DNA from: Bispira polyomma
Taxonomy: Eukaryota
Direction of reading: 5' to 3'
DNA length: 64,000 nt
Assembly (NCBI GenBank): GCA_965649765.1
Contig: OZ287760.1
Span: forward strand, 25,978,001 to 26,042,000
The notes beneath the pieces are model-generated. The model was not told the origin of the DNA, did no database searches, and saw nothing but the letters and a program-made list of their open reading frames with translations. Positions 36,527-64,000 of the stretch are shown here, piece after piece. A program made the position numbers and the translations under genes. Within the stretch, counting starts at the first letter, position 1, and the number at the start of each line of letters is the position of its first letter.

Positions 36527-37051
36527 TCAACACTCAAATCCCTTAAATCCTTAATACCGCTAAAAGTCTAACAACAACATCCCTTAAATGGTTAATACTG
36601 CTAAAAGTCTAACACACCAACCTTGCTTAAAGCCTTAATACCGCTAAAAGTCTGACACACCCACATCCCTTAAATCTTTAATATTGCTAAAAGTATAAAA
36701 CACCTACATCCCGTAAACCCTAATAGTGCAGTAATTCCACACACCCACATCCCTTAAATCCTTAATAGCGCAGAAAGTATACACACCAACATCCCTTAAA
36801 TTATTAATAGCGTAAAAAATTTAATACACCCACATCCCTTAAATCCTTAATAATGCTAAAAGTCTAAAACACCAACTTTCCTTAAATCCTTAATACTGCT
36901 AAAAGTCTAACACACCCACATCCCCTAAATCCTTAATACTGCTGAAAGTATAAAACACCAACATCCCTTAAATCCTTGATGCCGCAGAAAGTCCAACATC
37001 CCTTAAATCCTTAATACAGCTAAAAGTCTAACACACCAACATTGCTTAAAC
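36527..37051. repeat. Minisatellite, ~43-bp unit, ~12 copies
   Basis: Consensus ACACACCAACATCCCTTAAATCCTTAATACTGCTAAAAGTCTA. Confidence 0.93.
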
Positions 37052-38936
37052 CCTGATCTAGGTATCCCTACCCCCATGTTTAGCATCAACCGGTTATCTC
37101 AAACATACAAGATACCTACAAGCATTTATGTGTTTGTGTCAACCAGTAAGCGAAATAGTTTGACATAACAGATCGTTACTTTTTTCAGATGGTTTCTTTA
37201 CTTGGTCATTAAGCATCCCCCACCCCCCACACACACCATCAGCCTTGTGGTGTAATCATAATATAGTTTTAGTGGCTGAAGTATGCGATCTATAATCGTC
37301 ACTTTTAGAATTGAATTAGAAAAGTTTTACCGGTAATCGAATTAAGAACATCACACTTGAACCGTTAAAAGTGTAGTTTTTAAGAGAAAATGTTGGGTGT
37401 ACAAGAAGGAACTACGGTAAGTTGTAAGCTTTTTCCTGAAACCAGTAAGTGTGTCTGTTTAAAATATTGACACGTAAAAGATGTAGCATGTTAGACTATG
37501 CCACCTCTCGTAACGGTCATGCAAATATATGTTCAACCACACTACATTCTTACATTTCTCAGCTTTTGCATCAAATATCTTACAGGGCAAAGTACATATC
37601 CTAATTTAAATCCTGTGGTGCCAGGACATTAGTGTTAACTTTGCTCTTAATACTAAGACTAACAGTAAGCAGTTTATAATATTTTAGACTTAAATGTCAA
37701 GTTTAAAACTAAGTTAAGACTAAGACCTTTTGTCAATACGGCGCTGAAGCTGGAGCTGAAGGCATTGTATATCAACAACATGCTACTTCCATACAGACTT
37801 GTTTGATCTTTTAGATTTACAGAATCCAGTCTGACATACTACTAAACTGCCCACAGTCGATGTATACCTAAAATGTTTGCTTCACACATATACAATATGC
37901 CTACCACACAGATCTGATGAACCCTAAACATAATAGTACAGTAAGTAACAAAAAAAACAAGTTTGACTGAATTCAACATTTTAGTTTTACATATTACTTC
38001 AGTAAAAGCATTAGACATAAAATAATCTCAAAATTAAAATAAATTAGTTTAACGATACTATTTCCTGTATTTATTAGATTTATGTTTTGATTTCAGCACA
38101 TAATCAGTTAAAACACCAATTGAATTGTTTGACAAAAAGGCAAGATAAAAAACAGATTTATTAGTCTCTCTCATTCCTATGAGGCTCACTTATTTTCAAG
38201 ATCCGAGATGATAATAAATGACATGGTTTTAGTCTGTCCTCATATAATACTCTCTGTACCTGCTACGACTATATTCTTCATAAAAAAAGTGTTATTAACA
38301 GTGTGATGTAACATCAAAGAACTGACACTTCAACAGTTAACAGCTGAGATGTGGCTAATACCACCAAATACCACCAATTAATTCATTATGGACATGAGTA
38401 TCAATATAATATCACAAAAGATCTCATAGTTTTGTGTTTTTAAAATCAATATATTTCTTGTATTTTCAGTGTAACTGGCATTACTTTTAACCCCTTTATT
38501 TCTTCTTTTTTGACAATTGTAAAGTTAAAATGCAATATAATCTATGTATTAACTTAAGATGAAACATAGTATACAAAAAAAGTTAATTTTATTGAGTGTT
38601 AATTTCTAAAATAATAAACTCCCCTTTAAAGTACAGATAATTATGATTTGATAAAAAACAATGACTAATTTATGCCTTATTAGAGTTCTGGGTAAAATGA
38701 AACCACAAAATAATAAGGCACATCACAAATGACAAAAAATAAGTTTCATAGTGTCCTCATATACATTTTAAGTGTAAACAGCTCATAGTTAATATATATA
38801 ACATAAAATATGCACGTCCTACAAGTTCTCACTTTGTATAAGTTACAACTTGTACCGGTTTCAAACTGCTTGTACAAATAGAAACTTGTATAAAATATGC
38901 CCTTGTACCCAACATAAAGGTAGCTGTTTAAAGGAA

Positions 38937-42689: not shown

Positions 42690-45365
42690 AAACAAGTAAG
42701 TCAGCTGACCTCCCCAATGGTAAAGCCAGCCATTACCCTACATCTATAGTACCAACAATAAATAAATATGAAGTAAGTAGAGCCAGCCCATACCCTACAT
42801 CTATAGTACCAACAAAAAACAAACAATAAGTAAGTAAAGCCAGCCCATACCCTACATCTATAGTAACAACAATAAACAATAAGTAAGTAGAGCCAGCCCA
42901 TACCCTACATCTATAGTAACAACATTAAACAAACAATAAGTACGTAGAGCCAGTATATGTCCTACATCTATAGTAACAACAATAAATAAACAATAAGTAA
43001 GTAGAGCCAGTCCATACCCTACATCTATAGTAACAACAGAAAACCACAAGTAAGTAGAGCCAGTCCATACCCTACATCTATAATAAGAAACAATAAACAA
43101 TAAGTAAGTAGAGCCAGCCCATACCCCACATCTATAGTAACAACAACAAACAATAAGTAAGTAGAGGCAGTACATACCCTACATCTATAGTAACAACAAT
43201 AAATAATAAGTAAGTAGAGCCAGTCCATACCCTACATCTATAGTAACAACAATAAATAATAAGTAAGTAGAGCCAGCCCGTACCCTACATCTATAGTAAC
43301 AATAATAAACAAACGATAAGTAATTAGAGCCAGTCCATACCCTACATCTACAGAAACAAGAAATTAACAATAAGTAAGTAAAGCCAGTACATACCCTACA
43401 TCTATAGTAACAACAGAAAACCACAAGTAAGTAGAGCCAGCCCATACCCTACATCTATAGTACCAACAATGAACACAACAAGTAAGTAGACCCAGTCCAT
43501 ACCCTACATCTATAGTAAGAAACAATAAACAATAAGTAAGTAGAGCCAGTACATACCCTACATCTATAGTAACAACAATAAACAATAAATAAGTAGAGCC
43601 AGCCCATACCCTACATCTATAGTAAGAAACAATAAACAAACGATAAGTAAGTAGAGCCAGTCCATACCCTACATCTATAGTAGGAAACAATAAACAATAA
43701 GTAAGTAGAGCCAGTACATACCCTACATCTATAGTAACAACAATAAACAGTAAGTAAGTAGAGCCAGTCCATACCCTACATCTATAGTAACAACAACAAA
43801 AAATAAGTAAGTAGAGCCAGTCCATACCCTACATCTATGGTACCAACAATAAATAAACAATAAGTAAGTAGAGCCAGTCCATACCCTACATCTATAGTAA
43901 CAACAATAAACACAATAAGTAAGTAGAGCCAGTCCATGCCCTACATCTATAGTACAAACAATAAACAATAAGTAAGTACAGCCAGTTCATACCCTACATC
44001 TATAGTAACAACAATAAACACAATAAGTAAGTAGAGCCAGTCCATGCCCTACATAACAACAGTAACAACAGAAAACCACAAGTAAGTAGAGCCAGCCCAT
44101 ACCCTACATCTATAGTAAGAAATAATAAACAATAAGCAAGTAGAGCCAGTCCATACCCTACATCTATAGTAAGAAACAATAAACAATAAGTAAGTAGAGC
44201 CAGTCCATACCCTACATCTATAGTAAGAAACAATAAACAATAAGTAAGTAGAGCCAGCCCATACCCTACATCTATAGTAACAACAATAAACACAACAAGT
44301 AAGTAGAGCCAGCCCATACCCCACATCTATAGTAACAACAACAAACAATAAGTAAGTAGAGCCAGTACCTACCCTAGATCTATAGTAACAACAATAAATA
44401 ATAAGTAAGTAGAGGCAGTCCATACCCTACATCTATAGTAACAACAATAAATAATAAGTAAGTAGAGCCAGCCCGTACCCTACATCTATAGTAACAATAA
44501 TAAACAAACGATAAGTAATTAGAGCCAGTCCATACCCTACATCTACAGAAACAAGAAATTAACAATAAGTAAGTAAAGCCAGTACATACCCTACATCTAT
44601 AGTAACAACAATAAATAATAAGTAAGTAGAGCCAGTCCATACCCTACATCTATAGTAACAACAGAAAACCACAAGTAAGTAGAGCCAGTCCATACCGTAC
44701 ATCTATAGTAAGAAACAATAAACAATAAGTAAGTAGAGCCAGTCCATGCCCTACATCTATAGTAACAACAATAAACAATAAGTAAGTAGAGCCAGCCCAT
44801 ACCCTACATCTATAGTAACAACAACAAAAAATAAGTAAGTAGAGCCAGTCCATACCCTACATCTATGGTACCAACAATAAATAAACAATAAGTAAGTAGA
44901 GCCAGTCCATACCCTACATCTATAGTAACAACAATAAAGACAATAAGTAAGTAGAGCCAGTCCATGCCCTACATAACAACAGTAACAACAGAAAACCACA
45001 AGTAAGTAGAGCCAGCCCATACCCTACATCTATAGTAAGAAACAATAAACAATAAGTAAGTAGAGCCAGTCCATACCCTACATCTATAGTAAGAAACAAT
45101 AAACAATAAGTAAGTAGAGCCAGCCCATATCCTACATCTATAGTAACAATAATAAACACAACAAGTAAGTAGAGCCAGTCCATGCCCTACATCTATAGTA
45201 AGAAACAATAAACAATAAGTAAGTAGAGCCAGTCCATGCCCTACATCTATAGTAACAACAATAAACACAACAAGTAAGTAGAGCCAGTCCATACCCTACA
45301 TCTATAGTACAAACAATAAATAAGTAATAAGTAAATTACTGACCCCTCCACTGGTAAAGCCAGAT
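42690..45365. repeat. Intronic minisatellite, ~53-57 bp unit, roughly 48 copies; outlying copies at 46560-46647
   Basis: Consensus AGTAAGTAGAGCCAGTCCATACCCTACATCTATAGTAACAACAATAAACAATA. Confidence 0.97.
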
Positions 45366-58138: not shown

Positions 58139-60415
58139 GTGATTTATTTGTGATGGTTATTCAGCACTTATACAGGGCCCTATTGATATATCATGATCTA
58201 AGGCAATGATTCTCTGACAGGGATAGACCCACATAGCCAAGTAAATTTCCCTAACAGATTGTTCGTACAGAAAATATCTGTGAAATTAGTTGGACCCAGG
58301 TTTAGTACAACATCTAATAAATACTTTGAGCAACATACCCAGAATATTTACTATTAAAGATGCATCTAGTTCTACACGTAACATCAAGTGTTCCCTTTGA
58401 AAACCAGTAGTAACATTTATAGGACAATATTTCTATTTTGCAGAGTTTCAGAGTAGGTCAATGACGTCACTTCCTCTCATGTGGTATACATATCCCACTT
58501 GTGTAATAACTCATCAGTGCTCATAACTTGATGTTGTAAGACATTATAAAACATGTCTGGCAGTTTTAACGTCGGCAGACTTCGAAGCTTTTGCCACAAT
58601 GCTAACATATCTTAAACCAGTCCTAACACTCATAACAAGCTGTCAGTAACTGGATTAGGACACAGCAAAACATGTCAAAATGATTAATTGTTTATTTGTG
58701 ATAATATCTACCACTACATTGTAGAGTTATGCAATAAAAGTGTGGGTATATAAGAATATTAATAATTACAAATAATAACAAATATTTCTGCCATTGTCAA
58801 TAGAAGTAGTTTTGTTAATGTGACCTACTGTCACCTTAGCCAGTTCTACATATTCAGTATGCAGTAAGTTGTATACATTATCTTTCCTCAGTCTATTATG
58901 TAAAGTTGTTCATGATTTGCATCGAACAAAGATGGCGTACAAAACAAACTATTGCCTTATGGATCATAATAAATGTAGTTATAGCAGTTTAATACAAATT
59001 AATTGGGCGGCAAACAAAGTTTTAATGGGAAATCAGTTCCACAAAATAGTAGTTATTATTAATTATTATTAATGGTTTTGACTTCTGATTTTGCCATATT
59101 GGCATTTAAAATTTTTGTAACTTAAAACTTTTCTGCATAGATGGAAAAATTTTCCAAAGTGGAATTTGTAAATAAATTTCTCCTCTGTTTTTGCAGATAA
59201 CTTCACCCTTCTTCAGATGGTGGGATAAAAAAATATGCCATATCCTTACCTTCAATCCTTATCTTCAATCTCAGACTGAATTCGCTTAATAATTTAGAGA
59301 CTGATAGTCTGTCCCTTTAATAATGACCTAACACCTGAAGGTGTCCAGAGCTTTCCTTGTCACAAAGGCCTCATGACATGTTCTATTCCTATTCTTCTTA
59401 CAAGGTCATTTTGAACAGTTGAAGTATTCTGCAAAATAAGGACTTTTCTTCCAAAAGTATGGTCGTTTAGAGAGCAAACAATCCCAAATTGTATCCATTT
59501 TCTTATCAAAGCCTTACATTCCCAGTATTTGTCCTTCTTATATAATTTACTACAGCTATGTCCGTGTTACCTTTAAAGTCTGTCTTATACACTCTCCAGT
59601 TCCCACTAAGACTTTCAAGCATAAGCGAGGTAGTAATGACACTACCATTGGGTATATATTTCATTCACTGGAATTATTTATTATTTACAACACCTGCAAC
59701 TTAAATATATACACTCAGTAAAGGCACCCTAACTCAAAGTGAAGGTGATCTTAAAAGAGAACCAAGCTAACCTTATTTTAAGGCCAACCTTTACTCAAGG
59801 TTAAGGTTAGATTAATGCAATTAGATAATTTTGATAATATGTAGATAAGAGTTTAGATAAGATAGAGATAATATTAACGTAGAAAGTTGGCCTGATACCA
59901 CCTTTAGCTTATATATGTTACACTAAATATAAAGGGTAAAGGGGCACTAGGGTAAGGGTGCCAGGTAAGAGGGCCTCATCACACAAATACATTAATCCCA
60001 GTTGGGGTATAGGGTTGGTAAGGACCAAATATAGTACAGTTCTTGACATCTGCGTCTCTCTGTACTATTTGCCTCATTATCCAAGCCTAACCAATAAACA
60101 ATACTGAACGCGATATTTTTGGCAGAGTGTTGTCTCTGACTAAAGTGGCTGAAAACTGGGGTGGACTTTTGATGGGTTTGGGGGAGCCACAAGTTTTTTT
60201 GCAGCTTCTTCCAGTAGGCTCAGAGTATGATGACTCAATCTGTTGCCAGGTATACGTGTACCTGGCTCTGGAGTATTGAATGTTGAACTTTATCCCACTT
60301 ATAGGTGGTTAAGTGCTGGGATGGAGCGGTGTCACTTGCACTCATGGTTATATACCCAAGTGAATAATATAAAAGTTTGTTTGAACTTGGTGCAGGTGAC
60401 AGGAGTAATCTGACT

Positions 60416-60476
60416 GCCTTATATATTAATATTGGTTAATATATTTCGAACTCCTATGGGTATTCTCATCAGAGGC
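60416..60476 (-). ncRNA. Type I hammerhead ribozyme (copy 1)
   Basis: GCCT-CTGATGA-GAATACC(CATA)GGAGTTC-GAAA-TATATTAA(CCAATA)TTAATATA-TA-AGGC: complete core, three stems, AUA cleavage triplet. Confidence 0.9.
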
Positions 60477-61043
60477 TGTATTAAGATCACCTTTTTTTGC
60501 CTTAAGGTGGTGAAATGAACCCTGCCCAACTCCGCCTGATCCAGCGGAGCAATTGAGCTGAGTAGAGCTCTATATGGGCTCTAAGTCATTTCCAGGTGTT
60601 GTGGAGGCTCAAAACCATGATTACACCTAATTAAGGTGACCAGGTAGGGTCCACAGATAGTGTACAGTTAATAAAGGCAGATATACATAATATTTTATAA
60701 TATAATATAAATGATTATAATTATACCTGTGTGGAGTATAATTAATATTTTTATCTGAATAAAATATAGAATCCAAAAGATGTGCTTTTATTGGATTTCA
60801 TTTATCCATGGTTTTCAATAGACCAAGGAAAAGAACCATATGTGGTAGTAGGTAAAATTAACATGTAATATATACATAAACACAGGTTAGTTCAGTGTGA
60901 GAATGTGTGAATGCGTTAATGCACATTTGGTAAATATATGGCAAGTAAACCACATATAAATTTGGTAGTTATGATTATTACACAAATACTACTGACACTG
61001 TATTCAAATACAGCTTGAATGGAGTGGTCAGACTAAAAACCAG

Positions 61044-61734
61044 GGGCGGTATTCACAAAGATGGATCAAGCTGAGCGAAAAATCAGCTCAAGATCAGCCC
61101 AGGATCAAGATCAACTCAAAAAAAGGCTCAGCTGATCTTTGGATCAAATCAGTATTCACAAAGCAAAGATCAGCTGAGCCAAAAATTAGATCATTTTTAA
61201 ACAACAAAAACACAAGTTCAAGTTTTTATACATATTAAACAGCTGTTGTATGAATTAATTTCCATTTAAATTATATTTTGATGCATTAGGTTGATTATTG
61301 TAAGCAAAAGAATATTTTAAATATTTTTGGTTTAAATCCAAAACTTAAGCTCCGCCCACTTTTGATCCTGGGAAAAATACACAAAACATAGCCTCTTTTC
61401 ACAACAATTTAAACCAACATAGAACTGTACATAGCTACTCTTAAAATGACATATGTGAAGATAAAGTATCATAGATAATTTATCGATGATTTATTTTATG
61501 AAACCATTGTTAGTTTGTATATTACAAAGTTCCAAACTTTGATCCAAATCTTGATCCACCTAAATGGATGGATCAAAGTTAAGCCAAAAGATGAGCTTTT
61601 TAGTGAATACCAAACTTGATCTGATCCAAAAATTTGAGCTGATTTTTGGCTCAGCTAATTTTTGGCTCAACTTAAGCTGATTTTTGGCTCAGCTTGAGCT
61701 GATTTTTCGTTGATCCCTTTTGTGAATACCGCCC
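61044..61734. mobile_element. 691-bp Harbinger-type MITE with CAG TSD
   Basis: TIR GGGCGGTATTCACAAA / TTTGTGAATACCGCCC. TSD CAG at 61041-61043 and 61735-61737. The empty site AAAAACCAGGTAAG is visible at 62963-62976. Confidence 0.95.
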
Positions 61735-61783
61735 CAGGTAAGTAAGGTGAGTTGCCTGGTGACAGTGATGTCATAATGCCCTG

Positions 61784-62479
61784 GGCCCGTATTCACTAAC
61801 AGACTTAGCCAAGTCTTAGGCTTAAAGTTAAGACTTTTGTCTTAACTTTTGGGTAAAAAAGACTAAGACAAAAGTCTTAGTCTTAGCGGTATTCACAAAG
61901 CAGCTAAGCCTAAGTTTTAACTTAGCCAAGGGCTTAACTTTAAGACAGGTTGGGAGTGGGCTTAACTTTATGGTAAAAAGTCTTAGGGTTTTTACACAAC
62001 TTTTACAAATAAAACAGTGTAAATTTGCAATCCATAACAAACTATAAACATTTAACTTTGATATTATGATATTAAATAGCAAACAATTCTTACCGTAACT
62101 TGTGATGAGTCAAACAAAAAGTAGTATAATTCCTAACATATTTTGAATCATATATTTTTTGAAGAGGACTTAGCCAGTCTTAAGTCTAAGTCCAATGAAA
62201 GAAAACAATTTCTTATTTAATGATTTTTTTTTCACTCTGGGAAGTTCATATAGGCCTAAATAATTATATAGTATATGTGTGTGTGTAAAAATGTAAATAA
62301 TATTTTGAATAATTGTAAAAAGAACCATTTAAATTTAAGACTTTTGTCTTAACATAGTCTTAGCTAAGTCACCTTTTGTGAATACCATTTTAAGATAACT
62401 TAGCTAAGACTAAAGTCTTAGATTTAAGACTGGGCTTAGCCTAAGTTTTGGCTTAGTTTAAGACCGTTAGTGAATACGG
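61784..62479. mobile_element. ~700-bp Harbinger-type MITE inserted after CTG, right tip missing
   Basis: Left TIR GGCCCGTATTCACTAAC; the right GTTAGTGAATACGG lacks the last 3 bases and the TSD. The empty site ATGCCCTGGTCG is at ~63010-63021. Confidence 0.92.
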
Positions 62480-63606
62480 AATTGAGCTGAGTAGAGCTCT
62501 ATATGGGCTCTAAGTCATTTCCAGGTGTTGTGGAGGCTCAAAACCATGATTACACCTAATTAAGGTGACCAGGTAGGGTCCACAGATAGTGTACAGTTAA
62601 TAAAGGCAGATATACATAATATTTTATAATATAATATAAATGATTATAATTATACCTGTGTGGAGTATAATTAATATTTTTGTCTGAATAAAATATAGAA
62701 TCCAAAAGATGTGCTTTTATTGGATTTCATTTATCCATGGTTTTCAATAGGCCAAGGAAAAGAACCATATGTGGTAGTGGTAAAATTAACATGTAATATA
62801 TACATAAACACAGGTTAGTTCAGTGTGAGAATGTGTGAATGCGTTAATGCACATTTGGTAAATATATGGCAAGTAAACCACATATAAATTTGGTAGTTAT
62901 GATTATTACACAAATACCACTGACACTATATTCAAATACAGCTTGAATGGAGTGGTCAGACTAAAAACCAGGTAAGTAAGGTGAGTTGCCTGGTGACAGT
63001 GATGTCATAATGCCCTGGTCGTAATGTGACATCAGATGGGTGTATTACGTCAGGGGGACGTTGTGACGTCATAATGGCTTAGTTAAGCTTTTGAGCTCTG
63101 TCGTGTGAAGTGCCCAATATAAGAATATAAAGGGTAAAGGGGCACTAGGGTAAGGGTGCCAGGTAAGAGGGCCTCATCACACAAATACATTAATCCCAGT
63201 TGGGGTATAGGGTTGGTAAGGACCAAATATAGTACAGTTCTTGATATCTGCGTCTCTCTGTACTATTTGCCTCATTATCCAAGCCTAACCAATAAACAAT
63301 ACTGAACTCGATATTTTTGGCAGAGTGTTGTCTCTGACTAAAGTGGCTGAAAACTGGGGTGGACTTTTGATGGGTTTGGGGGAGCCACAAGTTTTTTTGC
63401 AGCTTCTTCCAGTAGGCTCAGAGTATGATGACTCAATCTGTTGCCAGGTATACGTGTACCTGGCTCTGGAGTATTGAATGTTGAACTTTATCCCACTTAT
63501 AGGTGGTTAAGTGCTGGGATGGAGCTGTGTCACTTGCACTCATTGTTATATACCCAAGTGAATAAGTTTGTTTGAACTTGGTGCAGGTGACAGGAGTAAT
63601 CTGACT

Positions 63607-63667
63607 GCCTTATATATTAATATTGGTTAATATATTTCGAACTCCTATGGGTATTCTCATCAGAGGC
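63607..63667 (-). ncRNA. Type I hammerhead ribozyme (copy 2, identical)
   Basis: Same sequence as 60416-60476. Confidence 0.9.
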
Positions 63668-64000
63668 TGTATTAGAATCACCTTTTTTGCCTTAAGGTGG
63701 TAAAATGAACTCCGCCCAACTCCGTCTGATCCGGCGGAGCAATTGAGCTGAGTAGAGCTCTATCTACACCTTTTTTTTTGCCTTATTTTCAGTAAATATG
63801 CATACTTACTGGTTTTTGGGTCTAGTAAGTTCACGCATTTACTAAACTGTCTAATTATTCTTTAAGTAATGATTAACTAGCCACATTAAGTTTTTTTCAT
63901 CCATATGATGTATCATTATGTGGTAGTGGTGATTTTACAAGTTTTCAAAGAGTCCATCTTTATTTAGGTAAATTTATTTAGGCATATTACATATACACAT

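Follow-up and report, generated by a model that had tools for sequence, protein, structure and literature searches.

A stretch of 64,000 nt from the Bispira polyomma genome (contig OZ287760.1; hereafter the window) contains a damaged copy of a small Penelope-like element, which we call mini-Penelope. We consider it probable that mini-Penelope is a protein-less Penelope derivative, spread as its own family, that is likely copied in trans by the enzyme of its autonomous parent from two internal starts, and whose RNA template was likely cut by a hammerhead ribozyme in a minority of cases.

The window copy of mini-Penelope

The window insertion comprises the following parts:

59926..63763, minus strand: whole insertion, a single arm, originally a 2.5-unit tandem of mini-Penelope, young mini-A group
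62503..63763, minus strand: unit 1, a complete 1261-nt period; full-length units elsewhere are 88-98% identical
63607..63667, minus strand: type I hammerhead 1; predicted cut after 63611, between unit positions 153 and 154
63364..63543, minus strand: ORF1 remnant of unit 1, frameshifted, the parent's first 60 codons; 82% to the autonomous 5′ region
63177..63363, minus strand: GIY-YIG remnant of unit 1, frameshifted, the parent's last codons of the domain
63124..63134, minus strand: site B motif of unit 1, a fixed 3′ end of insertions, ~50 nt past the stop codon
62503..63123, minus strand: 3′ non-coding region of unit 1 in shortened form; compared with the parent, 82-87% to the proximal 3′ region and ~60% to the distal one
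62480..62502, minus strand: start of unit 2 (23 nt), up to a deletion that removed unit positions 24-745
61784..62479, unstranded: MITE 1, inserted later; its terminal inverted repeat is truncated towards the deletion, and its intact end has CAG
61735..61783, minus strand: fragment of unit 2 separating the two MITEs; unit positions ~747-796
61044..61734, unstranded: MITE 2, inserted later; has terminal inverted repeats and a duplicated CTG (3 bp)
60574..61043, minus strand: remainder of unit 2, 3′ non-coding part; 98.9% to unit 1
59926..60573, minus strand: unit 3, incomplete, running from the start of the unit as far as site B; 97% to unit 1
60416..60476, minus strand: type I hammerhead 2, identical to hammerhead 1; predicted cut after 60420
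60366..60375, minus strand: site A motif of unit 3, the other fixed 3′ end; ~50 nt past the cut, 22 nt ahead of the ATG
59979..60345, minus strand: ORF1 and GIY-YIG remnants of unit 3, junction 60166/60165
59926..59936, minus strand: site B, 3′ end of the whole insertion, presumed start of cDNA synthesis

The initial annotation had described a tandem with a 1261-nt period and two identical type I hammerheads on the minus strand, each followed by an ATG (63543, 60345) and broken coding remnants. The period is indeed real (63763 to 62502), both 61-nt hammerheads are present with all core nucleotides, and the ATGs and remnants are as described; three-frame translation gave frameshifts in both remnants, and the unit has no coding capacity. 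What went unstated is that this insertion was damaged later, by one deletion, which took the hammerhead of unit 2 together with the initial bases of MITE 1, and by two MITEs. As a result, the hammerheads are now 3191 nt apart and the window locus cannot yield the doubly cleaved 1.26-kb RNA that had been proposed for it. The 3.0-kb deletion that distinguishes the unit from its parent has its junction in unit 1 at 63364/63363. Unit 3 differs from unit 1 by 11 mismatches and 8 gap positions over 648, and the alignment places a deletion over the site A motif of unit 1. The ends of MITE 1 recur in an insertion in another locus (L154). A target-site duplication was sought at 59926..63763 and none was found.

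The parent, the family and its fixed 3′ ends

The unit had been regarded as a non-autonomous derivative of a Penelope-like element (PLE), and this is supported by the genome search for an autonomous partner, which returned an element with RT and GIY-YIG that has both ends in common with it. This 5.5-kb element of the same genome is Neptune-like by its motifs. It has an 839-codon open RT/GIY-YIG frame (RVT_1, E 1.1e-6; GIY-YIG, E 8.7e-5) with a motif at residue 694 and the GIY-YIG motif at 740, as in the Neptune/Nematis clades, a C2H2 zinc-finger frame within a 2.2-kb 3′ region and a separate 261-aa ORF1, for which there was only a sub-threshold match in Pfam and no usable match in the Atlas. 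It carries the same hammerhead and is colinear with the mini unit on either side of a 3.0-kb gap. Judged by sequence, the mini unit is a 3.0-kb internal-deletion derivative of this parent. Splicing as the origin of the deletion was rejected, the junction lacking GT-AG ends in the five parent copies inspected, and so was long-range pairing from breakpoint to breakpoint, as 54-85% of random control windows were equally stable.

Mini-Penelope has spread as its own family. It has 86 and 39 exact junction matches, a single junction being common to more than 100 matches, and both mini subfamilies form one clade separate from the autonomous copies (support 100/100). An independent derivative, with breakpoints within 5 nt of those of mini-Penelope, has 14 matches. 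The dispersed copies lie on 14 contigs and have variable 5′ truncation and fixed 3′ ends; partial tandems, inverted arms and target duplications, which together with 5′ truncation are the traits of PLE-type insertions, are all found in the family. Seven other insertions (L116, L127, L142, L150, L151, L153, L193) and one 12-unit array (C7) have the ~1.27-kb hammerhead spacing from which such a monomer could arise, and it is there, not at the window locus, that consecutive units each have an intact hammerhead, as in retrozymes; the unit length of 1261-1273 nt exceeds the retrozyme monomer of under ~1 kb in the cited papers. The array is not the master locus: a private change at the ATG is common to its 12 units, and 6 of its 11 periods carry a 347-nt deletion that is absent from the dispersed copies.

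Parent and mini-Penelope use the identical two 3′ ends, site A 22 nt ahead of the ORF1 ATG and site B 50 nt past the last stop codon, which bracket the coding region. Among 157 segments at 80 loci, a sample of the genome, 45 anchored arms end at A and 71 at B (116 arms); arms reach up to 2.5 units. Wherever a locus has anchored arms on both strands (37 loci), A and B are both present; a further 26 loci added 13 two-armed insertions, each pairing A with B, which gives 50 of 50. Target duplications of at least 9 nt flank 33 of 34 two-armed and 9 of 37 one-armed insertions, against 0 of 73 shifted controls. Opposite arms of an insertion have 39 non-majority variants in common, where 5.9 are expected (27 comparisons). 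Such common variants could reflect later gene conversion.

The hammerhead and the RNA template

The motif has the core nucleotides and three stems of a hammerhead around the NUH triplet, here AUA, and the cut position is a prediction by the hammerhead rule. The isolated 61 nt fold as a type I hammerhead (−9.8 kcal/mol; z −1.33 against shuffled sequences, so that the fold energy by itself is unremarkable), and with 100-130 nt of context the lowest-energy fold is a different one. In the suggested Rfam check, a search of the window gave nothing at gathering score, and RAGATH-1-hammerhead matched one copy with 34.2 bits (E 0.0055), below the cut-off of 56.3. Five lineages retain the core and the stems, and stem III has undergone one compensatory change. 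Among copies, the hammerhead decays no less than the rest (2.2% vs 1.9-2.8%), as expected once inserted.

The 5′ ends of 11 of the 116 arms (9 loci) fall at positions 152-158, against 0.96 expected and 4 in the next best window; the 7-nt window was chosen after data inspection and arms of one insertion are not independent. Five of these ends are exactly at 154 and one is a jump scar resuming there. Three autonomous loci likewise have 5′ ends at 153, 154 and 157. This cluster likely reflects hammerhead cutting of the RNA template in the living cell. Within mini-A, 9 of 28 passes stop in the older subgroup and 2 of 71 in the younger (Fisher P 1.4e-4, for a split also chosen after inspection), with similar background stop rates. 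The trace of cutting is weak in the subgroup of the window copy itself and in mini-B, where none of 38 anchored arms (26 new loci) ends at 152-158, with 0.29 expected; one mini-B arm ending exactly at 154 was dropped by the 3′-end filter. The 13 loci of a third family have no end at 152-158, and two arms there end at ~161. Predicted accessibility of the hammerhead matches the stop rate only partly, as this third family is predicted to be fairly open (2.0 kcal/mol) and yet has no stop.

How these copies were made can be read in other ways. A dead, locally duplicated fragment or satellite, spread by DNA-level events rather than retrotransposition, is most improbable; the array with its private mutation in all units does look like local DNA amplification, and a few insertions were duplicated together with their flanks, but for the dispersed copies this explanation is refuted by their end structure. 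It is also unlikely that the hammerhead is a passenger, with uncut read-through transcripts of tandem copies as templates and a reverse transcriptase that stalls at the foot of stem III. About 90% of passes indeed read through the cut site, stem III ends at position 152, one or two bases from the cut, cleavage was dispensable in the anole element (PMC11167929), and Naiad elements are described as thriving without canonical hammerheads (PMC8557442). However, stem III is weak (−4.2 kcal/mol), whereas no comparable peak accompanies a −16.3 kcal/mol hairpin of the same unit. Ends are most frequent at 154, the base with which the cut RNA is predicted to begin, and the core is conserved in every lineage. 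Moreover, stops differ about tenfold between the mini-A subgroups with no fixed difference inside the hammerhead, and the single base by which the two are told apart is located downstream of stem III, a position that speaks against simple stalling at this stem.

A stronger candidate, to which we would still give somewhat less than even chances, is a 1.27-kb circle, covalently closed by ligation after self-cleavage at two sites and copied by rolling-circle reverse transcription from A and B, the stops at 154 being unligated or reopened circles. Of the 116 arms, 18 are longer than one period; none of 78 read-through passes has a scar at 148-160. No second 5′-end peak marks a transcription start (a fixed start near unit position 1 was rejected, as the five 5′ ends there are at about background rate), and the array, the sole long one found, is ruled out as master. 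Tandem repeats inside an insertion share variants (28 vs 3.1 expected, duplicated locus excluded). Shorter animal retrozymes were demonstrated to form circles (PMC7229834), and for PLEs circles were proposed (PMC4209133), according to these accounts. On the other hand, long arms fall slightly short of the numbers that an endless template would give (12, 3 and 1 of 92 exceed 1270, 1915 and 2540 nt, vs 15.8, 6.5 and 2.7 expected), and predicted masking of the hammerhead is greatest in the subfamilies with the fewest stops, which uncut RNA fits equally.

Our preferred reading is copying in trans of a template that is cut in a minority of cases. The common 3′ ends suggest that the RT/GIY-YIG protein of the parent mobilises mini RNA. 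It would make staggered nicks ~13-16 bp apart in AT-rich DNA, and these would prime cDNA synthesis on RNA of a single source, one nick at A and the other at B; every cDNA would extend until it falls off or reaches a ribozyme-made 5′ end, and both arms would be joined head to head. Since the majority of passes run through the cut site and leave no scar, the usual template would be uncut multimeric RNA or cut-and-rejoined RNA, the two being about equally plausible. The window copy would be a single B-primed arm of 2.5 units, damaged since. In vitro, the anole Penelope has two internal start sites and primes on both strands; its hammerhead mutants had no effect on insertion, and no RNA reads end at the cut (PMC11167929).

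It is tempting to speculate, though we hold it for rather doubtful in its entirety, that a retrozyme is being born here. The coding region would have been lost twice, with nearly the same breakpoints, and a 1.27-kb RNA would be cut, circularised and copied by a dimer of the parent enzyme from two sites into both strands of one break; the genome would keep a fossil record of the cut, and one base closing a competing helix would tune the openness of the template.

Insertion ends piled on a predicted cut are a probable in vivo trace, for which natural one-base variants are a ready control. One genome supplies the parent, two independent miniatures and an array, and thereby a worked route from an autonomous PLE to a retrozyme-like RNA, for which a preprint (bioRxiv 10.64898/2026.07.22.740005) offers co-occurrence and terminal-repeat trees only. 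That A is strictly paired with B, across 440 nt or 3.4 kb, limits the ways in which the enzyme can hold its RNA and would show which portions of the RNA are sufficient for transport in trans.

Relation to known Penelope-like elements and retrozymes

As described in PMC8557442 and PMC4209133, Neptune/Nematis-type EN+ PLEs share with the elements reported here the C-terminal GIY-YIG, the DKG motif, a Cys linker ahead of the endonuclease, a terminal repeat that bears a type I hammerhead, partial tandems accompanied by an inverted arm and AT-rich targets. They differ in that the mini unit encodes nothing and that its parent has the separate ORF1 and the zinc-finger frame. The hammerhead has a full stem III of 8-9 bp, in contrast to the minimal forms of most animal PLEs in these descriptions.

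The Poseidon element PAc of Anolis carolinensis (Frangieh et al. 2024, PMC11167929) also has two internal starts that set the genomic 3′ ends, priming of both DNA strands and an AT-rich target. Its sites lie one 30-40 nt tail apart inside the ORF, whereas A and B are 3.4 kb apart in the parent and 440 nt in mini-Penelope; it has no ends at the hammerhead cut, where genomic 5′ ends accumulate here.

Chlamys non-autonomous elements such as MRC1 (PMC8557442) are similar in pseudo-LTRs, head-to-tail copies and end similarity to autonomous families, but belong to another clade, occur in a green alga and are, by that account, mostly without canonical hammerheads.

Animal non-LTR retrozymes, as portrayed in PMC7229834 and bioRxiv 10.64898/2026.07.22.740005, are likewise non-coding, with one type I hammerhead per unit and tandem copies, and mobilisation by PLEs was proposed for them. 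The seven insertions and the array have the consecutive units with intact hammerheads by which the preprint recognises retrozymes; the latter measure 51-972 bp there, in a period search limited to 1000. Unlike them, mini-Penelope keeps recognisable ORF1 and endonuclease remnants and has an identifiable parent, from which it arose by internal deletion and not by amplification of the terminal repeat alone. Circles are demonstrated for the shorter retrozymes of PMC7229834, whereas for mini-Penelope a circular RNA is a possibility.

The window locus and its autonomous parent

Positions in the ~1.26-kb unit are counted on the minus strand (q1 = window position 63763), the predicted hammerhead cut lies between q153 and q154, and the genome searched was the 1.035-Gb assembly in 75 contigs. 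The window locus is composed as follows.

63763-62503, minus strand: unit 1, the first piece of the locus
after unit 1, minus strand: the first 23 nt of unit 2, then a deletion of q24-745
after the deletion, in minus-strand reading order: MITE 1, a 49-nt piece, MITE 2, then the remainder of unit 2
last piece, minus strand: unit 3, running to q640

The two hammerheads, described in the initial annotation as identical and of type I, are indeed identical over their 61 nt, and each folds as a type I motif when isolated; Rfam gave one weak hammerhead match (34.2 bits, E 0.0055) and none at gathering level. They are 3191 nt apart and q24-745 of unit 2 is deleted; therefore, the self-cleaved ~1.26-kb RNA that had been proposed is impossible from this locus today. 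A spacing of 1266-1273 nt persists in seven other insertions examined and in an array of 12 hammerheads on contig C7. Just beyond the 5′ end, 19 nt (window 63767-63785) resemble q70-87 with a longer A run; they may be what a template jump left behind at this junction. The MITEs (window 61044-61734 and 61784-62479), which we take to be PIF/Harbinger-like, represent two families whose terminal repeats are related and whose duplications are 3 bp long (CAG/CTG); one of these families is also present inside another mini copy (L154). Tandem arrays occupy window 42720-45333 (~48 copies of a 53-nt unit, strong strand skew), 1-475 (142-nt unit) and 36530-37054 (43-nt unit).

A search with the endonuclease remnant, in which 150 of 1508 candidates were scored, revealed open frames as long as 839 codons, and the suspected autonomous partner does exist: copies with the same hammerhead as the unit and a frame for RT and GIY-YIG. 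The 839-codon frame matches GIY-YIG above the cut-off (E 8.7e-5) and RVT_1 with 29.0 bits (E 1.1e-6), slightly below the cut-off of 29.6. A 261-aa ORF1 begins at the unit's ATG; it is separate, has no family match and is followed by an AT-rich gap and the RT frame (L063:1990-2950, L071:6437-7219), and one copy (L062) lacks 263 nt of this ORF1/gap part. The parent has a period of ~5.5 kb and a 3′ region of 2.2 kb with a C2H2 zinc-finger frame. This third gene of the Neptune-like element comprises 260 codons with two C2H2 fingers (Pfam zf-C2H2, E 3.7e-10; L061, L064, L067, L068, e.g. L067:6018-6803); one lineage keeps the frame open, and L061 has it frameshifted. The label Neptune-like rests on the DKG motif and the Cys linker found here, which are typical of Neptune and Nematis according to PMC8557442. 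Two long open frames flanking one parent copy (L069:4913-5905 and L069:3-1424) look like parts of a tyrosine-recombinase retrotransposon, an impression gained from the ends of their translations. Unit and parent are 82% identical over q2-397, 82-90% over q401-900 and 60% over q897-1260, and a single junction in the unit marks the 3.0 kb that are absent relative to the parent.

Miniature families

The unit belongs to a real, well-defined non-autonomous Penelope-like family, whose interest lies in a fossil cut-site signal, a strict two-site pairing and repeated miniaturisation. Exact junction matches number at least 86 for mini-A, the subfamily of the window, and at least 39 for mini-B, next to at least 88 for the corresponding position in the parent without the deletion; hammerhead matches total at least 321. 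Each of these minimum figures refers to matches rather than to insertions. Mini-A and mini-B have a common junction, are 83-91% alike depending on the region and form one clade separate from both autonomous lineages (tree of 12 rows, midpoint root). Mini-C (at least 14 junction matches) has its own junction, with breakpoints 5 nt and 3 nt away from those of mini-A, and on either side of it matches autonomous lineage B, its source, at ~90-98% identity, from which it follows that the same 3-kb loss occurred twice. Besides this independent main deletion, the mini-C loci (L176, L213-L225) have lost a further segment of the 3′ region. Neither a splice signal nor a long-range helix that would account for the 3-kb deletion was found at the breakpoints. 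Both independent miniatures retain ~180 nt of ORF1; by analogy, we would guess at selection for a binding site.

The array on contig C7 (G000:C7:61483654-61496404; L118, L075, L119) comprises 12 units, each with a hammerhead, whose two periods, 1269 and 922 nt, recur in a higher-order pattern; it is a nascent satellite derived from the mini element. It was considered as a master locus and rejected, being a later local amplification. Some insertions were copied along with their flanks (L094/L128/L146; L121/L122; L143/L144; L155/L156), in one case across three contigs, and were thus carried by a larger mobile element or a segmental duplication.

Insertion ends and the predicted cut site

Ends were mapped in 80 loci. 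The junction or the first DNA search supplied 73, including four mini-B loci; a motif immediately 3′ of the cut supplied six, and the window locus was added, whereas six loci that were duplicated or part of an array were excluded. Of the 157 segments, 45 end at site A, 22 nt before the ORF1 ATG (q198-212), and 71 at site B, ~50 nt after the last stop codon (q632-652), 116 in total; the remaining 41 end elsewhere, chiefly at later insertions, deletions or fold-backs. Where anchored arms are present on both strands, one ends at A and the other at B in 37 of 37 loci, with no A-A and no B-B pair, the absence of B-B being the better tested half since picking by junction enriches B arms. The same pairing is seen in 13/13 two-strand loci among 26 further mini-B loci, and the autonomous loci examined have the same two ends. 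Flanking direct repeats 9 nt or longer are present at 33/34 two-armed and 9/37 one-armed insertions (seven loci with later insertions excluded), against 0/73 shifted controls; scored lengths are mostly 14-17 nt including mismatch or overlap, so the true length is ~13-16 bp. Non-majority variants are common to opposite arms (39 observed, 5.9 expected), to tandem parts (28 against 3.1, two rows of a duplicated locus dropped) and to the window units (4 and 2 against 0.4 and 0.3). This sharing suggests that each insertion came from a single RNA, although gene conversion could also produce it.

The 5′ ends of 11/116 anchored arms, from nine loci, fall at q152-158, where the mean stop rate predicts 0.96 (Poisson P 7e-9, arms taken as independent); the next best window holds 4. 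Five of the 11 end at q154, and one of the 11 is an internal jump, with a short stutter before the sequence picks up again at q154; two insertions have both of their arms ending at the cut. Ends in autonomous loci lie at 154 (L070), 153 (L161) and 157 (L076). Among 86 exact matches on contigs C1-C4 to the motif just 3′ of the cut, which were not picked by junction, 3 end at q153-155, with 4 loci in q108-152 (hand count). Against this signal, the 26 new mini-B loci gave 0/38 arms at the cut by script and one extra arm exactly at 154 that the filter had dropped; no mini-C arm ends at the cut, and two end near 161. Next to arms stopping at the cut there is often a palindromic copy, 4-5 nt long, of the arm's own end (L124, L129, L132, L202); in L124 and L129 the opposite arm goes no further than site A, as though the first had blocked it.

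A natural control is provided by one base, q172, which splits mini-A into an older A group (3.0% from its own majority; mini-B state at 7/10 diagnostic sites) and a T group (1.2%). Stops at the cut were seen in 9/28 passes of the A group vs 2/71 of the T group (P 1.4e-4, stop lists made by hand), and by locus in 7/23 vs 2/45 (P 0.005), the split having been chosen after seeing the data in both comparisons; stop rates away from the cut are similar. A stall of the enzyme at stem III fails to explain this contrast because none of the ten differences between the groups is inside the hammerhead, and a change of the enzyme over time could be the cause. Predicted folds place q172 and loop II in a helix that competes with stem II; the pairing is matched in mini-B and, through a two-sided change, in the T group, and unmatched in the A group. 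Adopting the active fold is predicted to cost a median of 1.5 kcal/mol in the A group, 2.0 in mini-C, 2.1 in the parent, 2.3 in the T group and 3.8 in mini-B; these values follow the trend in stop rate except in mini-C, and the folds vary with the context chosen. The hammerheads of the window copy, a member of the T group, may therefore be inefficient at cleavage.

To the observed structure, descent, ends, duplications and 5′-end peak we would add a mechanism in which staggered nicks are made in the target DNA, cDNA is primed at A and B on opposite strands, the two arms are joined head to head and some templates are cut by the hammerhead. The cut site was read through in 91/102 passes, whose templates may be uncut multimers or circles; 18/116 arms are longer than one period, long arms are slightly rarer than an endless template predicts, and a search for scars at the cut site in read-through passes found none.

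Comparison with known Penelope-like elements

Our literature search, which did not reach most subscription papers, supplements, Repbase or Dfam, found no published Penelope-like insertions ending at a hammerhead cut and no start sites bracketing the ORF; the supplements of PMC8557442, PMC11167929 and bioRxiv 10.64898/2026.07.22.740005 may list similar non-autonomous families. An optional tail of 30-40 nt at one end is known (PMC8557442) and linked to two start sites (PMC11167929), whereas the two sites described here bracket the whole coding region. The ~180 nt of ORF1 kept in both miniatures come close to the 172 nt of ORF required by the anole element (PMC11167929). The parent is much like the rotifer elements of PMC3846280, which have pseudo-LTRs in inverted orientation, long 3′ spacers of variable length and a copy with an internal deletion.
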